Assembly (NCBI GenBank): GCA_951406725.2
Contig: OX597814.1
Location: forward strand, 94,798,001 to 94,862,000
Length of the DNA: 64,000 bases
Source: Octopus vulgaris
Lineage: Eukaryota
Direction: 5' to 3'
Positions 15,073 through 62,905 of the stretch are shown piece after piece. The notes under the pieces are model-generated. The model saw only the letters and a program-made list of their open reading frames with translations, searched no databases and was not told where the DNA came from. Made by a program: the position numbers and the translations under genes. How positions within the stretch are numbered: position 1 is the first letter of the stretch; every line of letters begins with the position of its first letter.

Positions 15073-15447
15073 TAAAGTATAATAGCCATCTCAATGTGGC
15101 TAACCACAAAGGGGGTGTTACTGTAGCTTTTTAGCCCCAGGAGATCATCGTCTCCAGCTGGTTTTAGGCACACTATATGTGCACTTATGGTATTTGCAAA
15201 GGGAGGCCATCCCTTTCTCGTAAGCCTAAGTGATACGCACCGGACTGACAGTTTCGAGGTCGTTGCCTCTTATCAACGGGCAGTAATCACCAGGTCACGA
15301 TGAAAGGGATAGCCTGTATGCAAATATATAAGAGTCTTTCAAGTGACTTCTGCCACTGATTTCGAAAAACTGTCTGCAAGCATTATCAAATCTCAGAACG
15401 AGATGTAAACAGTAATCGCTCGACAATGTAAAGTATAATAGCCATCT
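15073..15447 (-). mobile_element. 356-bp HHR-containing unit with 19-bp terminal redundancy
   Basis: TAAAGTATAATAGCCATCT at 15073-15091 and 15429-15447. Flanked by (TA)n; HHR inside. Confidence 0.75.
15240..15279 (-). ncRNA. Type I hammerhead ribozyme, U3-A8 core variant
   Basis: Minus strand CCG-TTGATAA-GAGG-CAACGA-CCTC-GAAA-CTGTCAG-TC-CGG. All three stems pair; GUC cleavage triplet. Confidence 0.8.
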
Positions 15448-15489
15448 AAATATATATATATATATGAGTTGCGCTTCATAATAACAGGA

Positions 15490-15564
15490 ATCTTACTGAA
15501 GAGCCTACCTGATTAAATAAATATTATTTTTATTGCTGAAAAAGGCGAAACTGCAGTCTAAGAT
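15490..15564 (+). ncRNA. Type I hammerhead ribozyme (intact)
   Basis: ATCTTA-CTGAAGA-GCCT-(36 nt)-AGGC-GAAA-CTGCAG-TC-TAAGAT. Predicted cleavage after 15558. Confidence 0.92.
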
Positions 15565-15888
15565 GAACAGAGTTAGTAAAAGTTTTTATCTTCATTTCAC
15601 TAAATTTATCAAGCTTCTGTGTTTCTAGTACATACTTCGCCTTTAATGTACTTATATATGAAAAATATATGGCCTGTGCTAGAAACACCAGCGATAATAA
15701 TTAATTTTGTTTTATCGCATTTTGAATTTGTTTACATATTTCTCGATAAATTTTGAGCGTTAGACTATATACCAGAAATCCCTAGTTTGTCGGGTTCGTT
15801 CTGCGTCTGCGCAGTGATCTGATTAGTTAGAGAGAGCAAATTAGTAGACGCACATGTGTCTATTGAGTTGCGCTTCTTAATAACAGGA

Positions 15889-15963
15889 ATCTTACTGAAG
15901 AGCCTACCTGAGTAAATAAATATTATTTTTATTGCTGAAAAAGGCGAAACTGCAGTCTAAGAT
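15889..15963 (+). ncRNA. Type I hammerhead ribozyme (intact, second copy)
   Basis: Same core and stems 399 nt downstream. Predicted cleavage after 15957. Confidence 0.92.
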
Positions 15964-16128
15964 GAACAGAGTTAGTAAAAGTTTTTATCTTCATTTCACT
16001 AAATTTATCAAGCTTCTGTGTTTCTAGTACTTACTTCGCCTTTAATGTACTTATATATGAAAAATATATGGCCTGTGCTAGAAACACCAGCGATAATAAT
16101 TAATTTTGTTTTATCGCATTTTGAATTT

Positions 16129-16182
<54 letters not shown>

Positions 16183-16184
<2 letters not shown>

Positions 16185-16864: not shown

Positions 16865-17709
16865 TTTAATGGTATGGTCAACTTTCTACAAGATCAAAAT
16901 TACCCTGTGAAACTTGTAAAAAATGGTATCTCGAAACCAATGAAATTAGACATCACGCATCTTAGGACTCCAAAAGAAAATCCAAGAAACATACAATCCC
17001 ATTTATTAACGCATACAAGTCTGGAATAACCAATATTTTCCACGTTATACAATCAAACCTACCGATACTCTTACAGAGTGCCAAAATGAATAAACTGATA
17101 GACAAAAGCTACCTGCGAAATAGTAAACGTCAGGGAAAAAAACCTTAAAAAAACAACTTACAAGAGCAAAATTCACATCAGAAAATAAAACAGAATTCTC
17201 CGTAAGGAATGTGGAGACAGCAGATGTGGATATACAACTACAACAATAACTACAAATAGATAGACGGGGACACCCACATAAAATTTAAGAGTGGATTCTT
17301 ATTTAAAGTAAATGTAAATATGAATTCCAAGGCACAAAACTTCATGTATTGCATTACTTGCCCCAAATGCAAGGAGAATTATATTGGCGAAACCAATAAT
17401 TCCTTTTGTCAATGTGCAAGGATCCCCAGACAGCACATCCGACAAGAGGAACTACGGAAAATTCCACTGAACAAACATTTAGAATTATGTGGAGAAGAAA
17501 AAATTCAAAATCGTCTCTTTCTACAAATGCTCAAAGAACAACTTAAACTTCCGAAAAACAATGGAACTATACTTCATAAAGAAGTTCTCACCAAAATTAA
17601 ACTCTTGAAATAAAGGAAACATTTGGAAATATGTGAAGGAAAATTCAAAGTTCCGAAAGATAACGGTACTATACTTCACGAAAAAATTATCAACGAAATT
17701 TAACCTAAT

Positions 17710-40365: not shown

Positions 40366-41420
40366 GGGTTGGACAAAAGAGTGGAAACACCTTTAGATTT
40401 CAAACAAATTTATTTTAATATACGGTAGGGCCGCCTTTGGCAGTAATTACGGCTTGAATCCTACAAGGTATGGACTTATATAAAGTTTGAATTGTTTCCA
40501 AAGGAATTTTTGTCAATTCTCCAGCTAAATTGGTCTCCAGTTCTTGTAGTGATGATGGTGGAGGATATCGACTCCTTACTTGTTTTTCTAAAATGCACCA
40601 TAAATGTTCAATAATATTGAGATCTGGGGACTGTGGTGGCCAGATAAGATGTTCAACTTTCACTCGAATGATCCCCGTACCTTTCAATAACAACTTTAGC
40701 TGTGTTGATTGGTGCATTATCATCCTGAAAGATTGCGTTTCTCTTTAGGGTTAATTTGATCAGATAAAATGCTTAAATAGTCTTGACTATTAATTCTGCC
40801 TTGAAGGAAAACCATTGAACCGGCAAATTTCCAAGATATAGTCCCTCAAATCATCACAGATCCTCCTCCATGTTTAACAGTTGGAAAAATGGCAGTCTGG
40901 GTCAAAAGCTTCTTTTGGCTGTCTCCACTCGTATATTCGGCCGGTAGTCGGAAATAAGGTAAAGGATAACTCGTCCAAGAAAATAACATTTTTCCACTGC
41001 TCTAGGGACCAATTTTGTAGGTTTTTACTCCACGCTAAACGCTTTGCAACAATTGTTTTTGAAAGAAGTGGTTTTCTTATTGCAGCCCTTCCGTGAAATC
41101 CGGCTTTTTGCAGCTCCCAGCAAACAGTTTTTGAGGAAACTGGGTTCTCGAGGTGGTCATTAAGCTCTGCAGTAATTTTGGGAGCTGTCATTTTGTGATG
41201 CTTTCTAACAATTCGCGTAAGAATCCGACGGTCCCTATCTGAAAGTTTTGGTTTTCTTCCGGAGTTTTTTCCCGCTTTCTCAAAGGATGTCATTACTTTC
41301 GAGTCAGTACTACTTTTATACACCAAACATTTCGGCTGTTTTCGTTACGCTAACGCCTGCCATGCGAGCACCAGCAAATTGACCTCTTTGAAAGTCTGAT
41401 AGATTTGTTATTTTAATGAG
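40363..41420 (-). mobile_element. Decayed Tc1 (DD34E) transposon
   Basis: GRKPKLSDRDRR, WKNVIFLDE and WPPQSPDLNIIEHLW. TIR CAGGGGTTGGACAAAA..TGGAAACACC after TA. Confidence 0.92.
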
Positions 41421-62019: not shown

Positions 62020-62905
62020 ATTACGTGTGACATACCTGTTAAGACAATCTTTTGCATCTGTTGGATGAATCATTCTCAAATAATTTTCAGTTACTTCTTT
62101 GATCATTCCAAGCGCTCCTACAATCACTGGTATTGTAACAGTCTTGAAATGCCACATTTTTTTTCGATTTAAATAAGTAAAACTTTATAATTACTGAGCT
62201 TGTCAATTCTTTCGCCGAGATATTATGATCACGAGGAATGCTCATGTCAATCAATAAATAGACTTTACAGTTTTGGTCTTTCACAACAATATCTGGTTTA
62301 TTAGCTGTGGTAGTCCGGTCTGTATGTTCCGGAAAGTTCCAAAGAATCGTTGCATTTTCTCCCTCAGTTACAGCCTCAAGATAGTGCATGCACCATTTGT
62401 CAGCAGTTTTGATTTTATAATGCCGACATATTAACCAGTGTAGATAGTGGCCAACTCTGTCATGTCTTGATTTATACTCTATGGGTGCTAAACTTTACAT
62501 CCAGAGATTAGGTGGACCTCTGTTTCAATATTATCGTTGCAGTATCGGCACTTTGGGTCTACTCCATTTTTCGTTACATTGGCTTGATAGTTCTGGGTCA
62601 ATAAGCTCTGGTCTTGAACAGCTAAGATGAAGCCTTCGTTCTCTGCCTTTAGCTCTGAGTTCCGTAACCACTGAAGTGTGTGCTTCTGGTCTACCTCAGC
62701 TTGTTTGCTACTGGCCACAATTTCGCCATGCAAAGGTTTTTGTTCCCACCTGTCAGCCAATTATTCATACGGTTTTTCTTTGCCACTGATTTCACCATTT
62801 TGCAACAACAGTTGCTGCACATCCATTATGCTTTTCAGCTTAGGCTGAGCTCAACTGGAAATTTTTTGCACTCTTCCATGATAGAATAAAGCTTCTTACG
62901 CCTAA
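62020..62905 (-). mobile_element. R4/Dong-type LINE fragment (CCHC zinc knuckle + RLE)
   Basis: WEQKPLHG, CRYC...ETEVHLISGC, ANKPDIVV..LLIDMSIP, and IPVIVGALG. 5'-truncated end abuts (TAA)n. Confidence 0.9.

Follow-up and report, generated by a model that had tools for sequence, protein, structure and literature searches.

A young, protein-free copy of a 399-nt hammerhead repeat lies in the window that we analyzed, that is, the whole 64-kb stretch G000:C1:94798001-94862000 of the octopus genome, and the family to which it belongs is, by its genomic features, almost certainly a metazoan non-LTR retrozyme. We propose that the 1.67-unit insert in the window was written by a Neptune-type reverse transcriptase (RT) that started at one internal site and traveled round a circular monomer RNA, a reading that we consider reasonably probable.

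Two hammerheads in a 1.67-unit insert

A profile scan of the 64-kb window with Rfam returned two matches to the type I hammerhead (Hammerhead_1, RF00163), at 15490-15564 and 15889-15963. Both score 36.3 bits against a gathering score of 34, and they are the only gathering-level Rfam hammerhead matches within the window. This confirms the preliminary description, which had placed two hammerheads 399 nt apart. The features of the insert are:

15450-15464, no strand: (AT)n tract bordering the insert on its 5′ side, the targeted microsatellite (sequence)
15465-15733, plus strand: 5′-truncated partial unit of 269 nt, unit phase 131-399 (repeat comparison)
15490-15564, plus strand: type I hammerhead 1, predicted cut after C15558 (Rfam, folding)
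15559-15957, plus strand: predicted cleavage-to-cleavage monomer, 399 nt (ribozyme match, folding)
15717-15757, plus strand: internal copy of the putative RT start, with GCATTT, a U-rich tract, ACAT and a CTCG/TGAG hairpin (diversity, motif comparison)
15734-16132, plus strand: full 399-nt unit in insertion phase, 16132 being the family's fixed 3′ end (array ends)
15889-15963, plus strand: type I hammerhead 2, predicted cut after C15957 (Rfam, folding)
16133-16183, no strand: (TA)n tract of 26 copies at the fixed 3′ junction (repeat finder, 16132-16183)

In hammerhead 1, a 6-bp stem I (ATCTTA, 15490-15495, paired with TAAGAT, 15559-15564) encloses the core CTGAAGA (15496-15502), stem II (GCCT, 15503-15506, paired with AGGC, 15543-15546, then GAA), the palindrome ACTGCAGT (15550-15557) and C17 at 15558. 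Hammerhead 2 has the same anatomy, offset by exactly 399. A helix I of 6 bp, a helix II of 4 bp and a helix III of 2 bp with a palindromic loop make up the canonical metazoan layout (PMC4209133); compared with it, the 36-nt hairpin extension that stem II of hammerhead 1 bears (15507-15542) is unusual. Both hammerheads had been called perfect. Their core and stems are indeed canonical, but the stem II extension, a G-to-T change at 15513 that is private to copy 1 and weakens this extension in folding, and the stem III of the single ribozyme, which consists of 2 bp and a UGCA loop, qualify that description.

The two ribozymes are part of a direct repeat (15465-15733 and 15864-16132, spacing 399) with 3 substitutions over 269 bp, at 15478/15877, 15513/15912 and 15632/16031, in agreement with the earlier count of 3 differences over 270 bp. 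The coordinates given earlier for the monomer from cleavage to cleavage, 15559-15957, were also right. Altogether, the insert spans 15465-16132 (668 nt, or 1.67 units) and has a (TA)n tract on each side. The 399-nt unit contains 133 G+C, and no frame of at least 120 aa in the list of open reading frames overlaps 15465-16133. No tRNA was found near the insert, and the arrays are bordered by TA rather than by LTRs.

The 1.7-mer had further been proposed to form a double hammerhead through its palindromes, which is the textbook reading for such an architecture (PMC4209133). Folding energy does not favor it: in a comparison without tertiary terms, the ensemble-energy penalty is 11.0 kcal/mol for a forced double hammerhead in the 1.7-mer and 9.9 and 12.6 kcal/mol for the two single folds. 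Because the cost of the double hammerhead falls between those of the single folds, energy does not choose among them. Coral and mussel monomers cleave alone, and axolotl ones cleave better as dimers (PMC7229834). The monomer 15559-15957 itself folds at -96.2 kcal/mol (z -2.6) and the circular monomer at -89.9 kcal/mol; the ribozyme stems are absent from the circular prediction, an absence that in this model would protect a circle.

Several other features occupy the window. Directly left of the retrozyme's TA tract, a ~340-bp insertion (15074-15446) is flanked by two copies of the 18-bp direct repeat AAAGTATAATAGCCATCT, near 15074 and 15429. It has partial matches of 74-94% in 4 other sampled regions and is likely a SINE or a LINE 3′ fragment. 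A degenerate Penelope-like endonuclease remnant at 16993-17605 (plus strand) is 25-50% identical to P0001, the Penelope-like frame described below, and is old and apparently unrelated to the retrozyme insert. The minus-strand frames 40874-41344 and 62087-62494 presumably resemble part of a Tc1/mariner transposase and a C-terminal piece of a LINE, respectively.

A dispersed family with a conserved ribozyme fold

We searched the genome, which is microsatellite-rich and comprises 2.8 Gb in 227 contigs, with the monomer. The search gave 662 first-look candidates; the best 40 were scored and contained at least 110 matches on many contigs. An exact 20-nt core motif of the subfamily-A ribozyme occurs at least 108 times in the genome and its reversed control not once, and the ribozyme core is therefore not a product of chance. 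Exact genomic occurrences number at least 185 for a 3′-end motif, at least 96 for the subfamily-B ribozyme motif and at least 134 for a start-hairpin motif, with 0 for each control. The family thus amounts to at least a few hundred insertions, and our sample comprises 169 merged regions with 182 chains as well as 20 further loci.

These genome-wide counts uphold the preliminary reading of the locus as a retrozyme-type tandem, multi-copy and dispersed, as opposed to a single-copy locus. A local duplication was rejected in view of the many dispersed copies on many contigs. Satellite DNA was rejected as well: the longest array among the at least 182 chains has 6 pieces, a number that assembly collapse could have lowered, and the arrays are dispersed rather than long and confined to few loci. 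The family shows genomic features by which non-LTR retrozymes are recognized, namely head-to-tail units (399 nt, within a range of 150-450 bp), each with a type I hammerhead, no protein frame, a GC content below 50% and many dispersed copies.

Subfamilies differ by up to 14%, and 51 of the first 52 nt are identical between subfamilies that are otherwise 86% alike. Across units, stem II reads GCCT/AGGC, GTCT/AGAC or ATTCT/AGAAC, the outer pair of stem I is A-T or C-G, N7 is A, C, T or G, and the triplet is GTC or GTA. This covariation, which was read off the ribozyme variants of the units and not from formal pair counts, points to structural constraint on the ribozyme, with the fold kept across subfamilies. 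The canonical core is present in 108 of 171 units and U4C in 54 of 171, in a sample enriched for subfamily B; another 5 of the 171 ribozymes were unparsed and dropped. In subfamily B, to which the at least 96 exact matches belong, the core carries U4C and stem II has an A.C pair at its base. In vitro, U4C reduces activity, yet it supports viroid infectivity (PMC3088659), and the good amplification of a subfamily with a weakened core suggests that efficient cleavage may not be needed.

Contigs from three sequencing runs, the kind of which we guessed to be RNA, and from one run of unknown kind cover the unit, in some cases across the internal junction; such contigs cannot reveal ends or circles, and this coverage speaks neither for nor against expression.

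One 3′ end, a TA target and variable 5′ ends

Selecting by the ribozyme motif (the best 100 of 108 positions listed) yielded 83 arrays, and in 81 of them the 3′ end lies at the phase of 16132 and is followed by (TA)n. Overall, 163 of the 182 chains have this end with TA directly after it, as do 20 of 22 subfamily-B regions and all 20 further loci. The fixed end sits 175 nt downstream of the predicted cut. The 5′ starts scatter across the whole unit, and a TA-rich 5′ flank is present in 143 of 165 arrays. Random permutation of both start and end phases, which had been named as support for a circular template, is therefore not borne out: only the 5′ ends vary. A circle can, however, also be copied from one set internal point, so that this outcome does not refute a circular template.

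Upon examination of the junctions, we found C as the second flank letter, which is also what comes next in the unit itself, at 20 of 151 ends, compared with 12 of 906 later TA positions (p = 2e-10). This excess indicates that priming is internal and that the template runs on past the end. The extra template letters number 1-5 and occur at a minority of ends only. Variation along the unit is lowest immediately 3′ of the start (diversity 0.019 in unit positions 1-25, with positions 1-6 masked), as would be expected of a loading site. No target duplication is discernible, and (TA)n on both sides would hide one. TA or AT is found at 61% of 114 5′ starts against a background of 20%, a difference inflated by BLAST end extension, and microhomology at the 5′ starts is suggestive only. 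We found no second fixed start; two-armed insertions, with inverted 5′-truncated arms, occur in 3 of the 169 regions.

One locus, L120 (G000:C7:125334151-125334932), contains a complex insertion of alternating inverted pieces, each bearing unit ends.

Arrays copied across an intact cleavage site

Read-through was scored in 76 arrays, kept from 80 that had been chosen by the 3′-end motif (4 chains were dropped), a choice that mildly favors multi-unit arrays. The cut site is reached by 51 of them; 49 pass through it and 2 stop there. A second cut site is passed by 13 of 14 arrays, and in 191 of 195 units the 12 nt around the cut site are free of indels. A cleaved linear monomer would yield at most 175 nt. 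Because the inserts read on, the junction must have been intact or re-ligated in the template, and we rejected the cleaved linear monomer in that role.

Units of the same array differ by 1.1%, compared with a median of 8.0% between arrays (53 of 77 multi-unit arrays; the remaining 24, with less than 80 nt of overlap, were dropped). An array differs from its closest neighbor among the others by 1.1-1.2%, about as much as its own units differ from one another, and the within-array distance exceeds both in 8 of the 53. We counted 40 derived alleles common to all units of an array and 152 in one unit; less than one case of coincidental sharing is expected over 14,055 array-sites. The array in the window shares one derived allele, G at 15709 and 16108, and 21 shared alleles in 15 arrays are absent from every other sampled array. 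Taken together, read-through, low divergence and shared alleles indicate that the units of any one array derive from a single unit sequence in which the cut site was intact. The 1.7-mer had earlier been explained by reverse transcription around a circle, and it does fit copying across an intact cleavage junction from one unit sequence. Judged from these comparisons of sequence, that template was likely a circle, and a circular template is the reading toward which we lean.

A rather unlikely alternative keeps the same enzyme and the internal start but takes as template an uncleaved linear multimer from a few homogeneous source arrays, with the ribozyme as a passenger or acting later, as has been proposed for autonomous Penelope-like elements. 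Such a multimer explains the fixed end, the 5′ truncation and the seamless read-through equally well, and the shared alleles could come from a homogeneous source array outside our sample. For the Anolis element, cleavage is dispensable in vitro and unprocessed multi-copy RNA is the main substrate (PMC11167929); in octopus, the weakened-core subfamily B spread well. Minor alleles shared within long arrays point in the same direction. The four longest arrays are not pure stars: of their 43 variable columns, 9 have a minor allele in at least two units. In an array of six pieces (G000:C19:53546379-53548697; L011, L013), units three apart have three variants in common, a period-3 pattern compatible with two passes over a trimer or with duplication at a later time. 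By contrast, arrays copied from a linear multimer could only shrink, yet there is no long master array among the matches listed. Nor do differences keep their position along the array: 12 same-order pairs stand against 14 reversed ones among 139 differences, a comparison of low power. The 5′ starts do not appear to be inherited, in that arrays with an equal 5′ start are not closer kin (p = 0.62, likewise of low power), and we found no clear 5′ transduction, the shared flanks being other TA-targeting elements or one segmental duplication. Stem covariation and the kept fold also argue against a ribozyme that is a mere passenger on a linear multimer.

One pair of 2%-divergent arrays shares a 3′ neighbor, and transduction is possible there.

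With regard to the spectrum of alleles, we found no significant A-to-G excess among the shared ones (8, compared with 4 T-to-C; p = 0.16). The A>G share is higher in shared than in single alleles at p = 0.049, uncorrected, and ADAR-type edits fixed in arrays are not established. Separately, the shared alleles seem uneven between the strands (A>T 9, T>A 3; T>G 7, A>C 1) and short of C>T/G>A changes (5 of 40, compared with 44 of 152 in single-unit alleles). In these small numbers, looked at post hoc, the pattern is as if the alleles had arisen at an RNA or polymerase step.

A Penelope-type enzyme as the candidate

We consider it likely that a Penelope-type enzyme mobilizes the family. A GIY-YIG search of the genome gave 6136 candidates, the best 150 of which were scored, and many of them lie in 781-aa open frames. 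In one, P0001 (L184:1626-3971), the RVT_1 match (E = 1e-6) falls slightly short of the curated cut-off and the GIY-YIG match exceeds it; the linker between RT and GIY-YIG carries the motif CxxxxCxxC, and the frames are intact in many copies. The label Neptune-type, which we apply provisionally to P0001, is based on this Zn-finger linker and on domain order. In Penelope-like elements of the Neptune/Nematis layout, a CX2-5CxxC linker has been suggested to favor (TA)n (PMC8557442). The 3′ end of the P0001 family runs into TA (896 exact occurrences), with an optional tail of ~27 nt. This family and a second one have in common an end in which GCATTT is followed by a T-rich stretch and then AyAT, while the optional tail contains a CTCG hairpin; the motifs at the retrozyme start follow the same order. 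This likeness is short and was seen post hoc, and GCATTT varies among retrozyme subfamilies.

The retrozyme has further traits of Penelope-like elements, namely a fixed 3′ end, 5′ truncation, partial tandems and a microsatellite target. A blastn comparison of three unit queries with 50 GIY-YIG loci found short motifs only and no extended homology. A search for an autonomous partner through the start hairpin returned 11 unexplained matches and 9 subfamily-B loci, all of them retrozymes. The optional 30-40-bp Penelope tail is absent, with TA directly after the end in 163 of the 182 chains. Because homology and tail were looked for and not found, we do not class the family as a Penelope derivative, although by its insertion features it appears to work like a non-autonomous Penelope-like element. 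A 17/18 antisense match to a Penelope ORF at the start site (E = 0.3) was taken as chance.

Mobilization of the repeat by another RT, from a LINE such as RTE or CR1, through TA-primed copying is improbable. PMC7229834 counts LINEs among the candidates, and the lack of a homologous Penelope-like partner in our searches would suit them; but the insertions have no poly(A) or repeat tail of their own and no discernible target duplication, the C excess places priming internally, and the (TA)n target and end motif match those of the genome's Neptune-type elements; a (TA)n bias has been described for CX2-5CxxC Penelope-like elements (PMC8557442). Similarly improbable is that short insertions were expanded and homogenized at the DNA level by unequal crossover or gene conversion, which would give shared alleles and the period-3 pattern but could not extend a copy shorter than the unit beyond a single unit, whereas 76 of 163 clean arrays (in a sample enriched for long copies) have at least two pieces and array lengths fall off smoothly, with no steps at unit multiples; such expansion may contribute to the longest arrays only.

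L184 (268-3971 and 4850-4960) represents a young Neptune-type family with an upstream ~480-aa frame, P0002, that belongs to no clear Pfam family, and with tandem CCAAT-like repeats in its 3′ region. By eye, a stretch ~70 nt before its 3′ end resembles a degenerate hammerhead with the core TTGATAA (C3U/G8A); no hammerhead was scored in an Rfam scan of the L184 Penelope 3′ region. Hammerhead-like motifs with long stem II inserts and a palindromic stem III are present at L159:455-560, L158:45-125 and L154/L197, those in L158 and L159 each about 45-50 nt before a TA tract, and these motifs are probably the ends of further ribozyme-bearing families. The TA tracts beside many arrays, for example L215, L225 and L249, have also received several further young elements, one of them an inverted Neptune-type end that carries its tail, and are shared insertion hotspots.

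Proposed mechanism

Copying by a Penelope-type RT round a circular monomer would proceed in five steps. First, a multi-unit copy would be transcribed. Second, its hammerheads would excise the 399-nt monomer, which would then be ligated, by analogy with the retrozymes of PMC7229834. Third, the putative Penelope-type protein would nick (TA)n and prime at the U-rich/ACAT site, which lies 175 nt downstream of the predicted cut; in vitro, a Penelope-like element has been shown to initiate internally at AT-rich targets (PMC11167929). Fourth, the cDNA would cross the cut site, as the observed read-through indicates, and would run up to about 5.8 rounds on the presumed circle. Fifth, the cDNA end would join the TA tract, often at a TA or AT in the unit, leaving the variable 5′ ends that we observe.

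In a broader and more tentative reading, the family might be a genomic tape record of a Penelope-type RT rolling round ribozyme-made circles (monomers, sometimes multimers), recruited by mimicking a ~45-nt loading signal, with a single start and without descent from a pseudo-LTR. If this is true, GCATTT, U-tract, ACAT and CTCG hairpin would together serve as a transferable signal for target-primed, rolling-circle insertion into TA repeats. The family points to a template phase, to a target and to a candidate enzyme, intact copies of which are present in the genome, and the choice between circle and linear multimer thereby becomes a direct question in vitro. The literature examined proposes, but does not show, that retrozymes return to the genome via a circle and a Penelope-type or LINE enzyme.

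Comparison with known systems

As a kind of element, the non-LTR retrozyme is already known, and the 399-nt family is an added member. A literature search that covered few subscription journals found no cephalopod retrozyme and no such analysis of ends, although two supplements may list entries; the main text of PMC13282606 contains neither 'retrozyme' nor 'ribozyme'.

Metazoan non-LTR retrozymes (Cervera and de la Pena 2020, PMC7229834) consist of tandem low-GC units of 150-450 bp (350-390 bp in mussel), each with a type I hammerhead and no ORF, and copying of the circle into tandem cDNA by a Penelope-type or LINE enzyme was proposed there. Cleavage and circles were demonstrated for those retrozymes, whereas the octopus family is characterized by its genomic insertion footprint. 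It adds to them the fixed start, the TA target, the read-through and the 36-nt stem II extension. The terms 'target site', 'truncat', 'microsatellite', 'octopus' and 'cephalopod' do not occur in the main text of PMC7229834, which contains no analysis of the insertion footprint.

Vertebrate retrozymes (Li, Clavereau, Pollet 2026, 10.64898/2026.07.22.740005) likewise co-occur with Penelope-like elements and form short arrays, 75% of the families having at most seven units; local tandem amplification was left open there. In Xenopus, the link to Penelope-like elements is homology to pseudo-LTRs (24 of 57 families), whereas in octopus it is a shared target and end motif, with no homology in 50 loci. 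One of the 9 vertebrate dimers assayed in that study cleaved, which counsels caution for the octopus ribozyme.

Poseidon_Ac of Anolis (Frangieh et al. 2024, PMC11167929) similarly has an internal RT start downstream of a hammerhead, an AT-rich target and genomic ends that fall on the starts. It is autonomous, with two starts that give a 30-40-nt tail, and with unprocessed linear RNA, whereas the octopus family starts at a single site and lacks both tail and ORF. Chlamys elements of the non-autonomous type, MRC1 among them (Craig et al. 2021, PMC8557442), are also multicopy, head to tail and biased to microsatellites; unlike the octopus family, these elements of green algae resemble their autonomous partner at the 3′ end and mostly lack hammerheads. 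Within the octopus genome, the Neptune-type P0001 family differs from the retrozyme in encoding RT and GIY-YIG, in its optional ~27-nt tail and frequent outward-facing arms, and in having no extended homology to the 399-nt unit, but it shares the (TA)n target, the fixed 3′ end, the GCATTT/T-rich/AyAT motif and the CTCG hairpin beyond the end.
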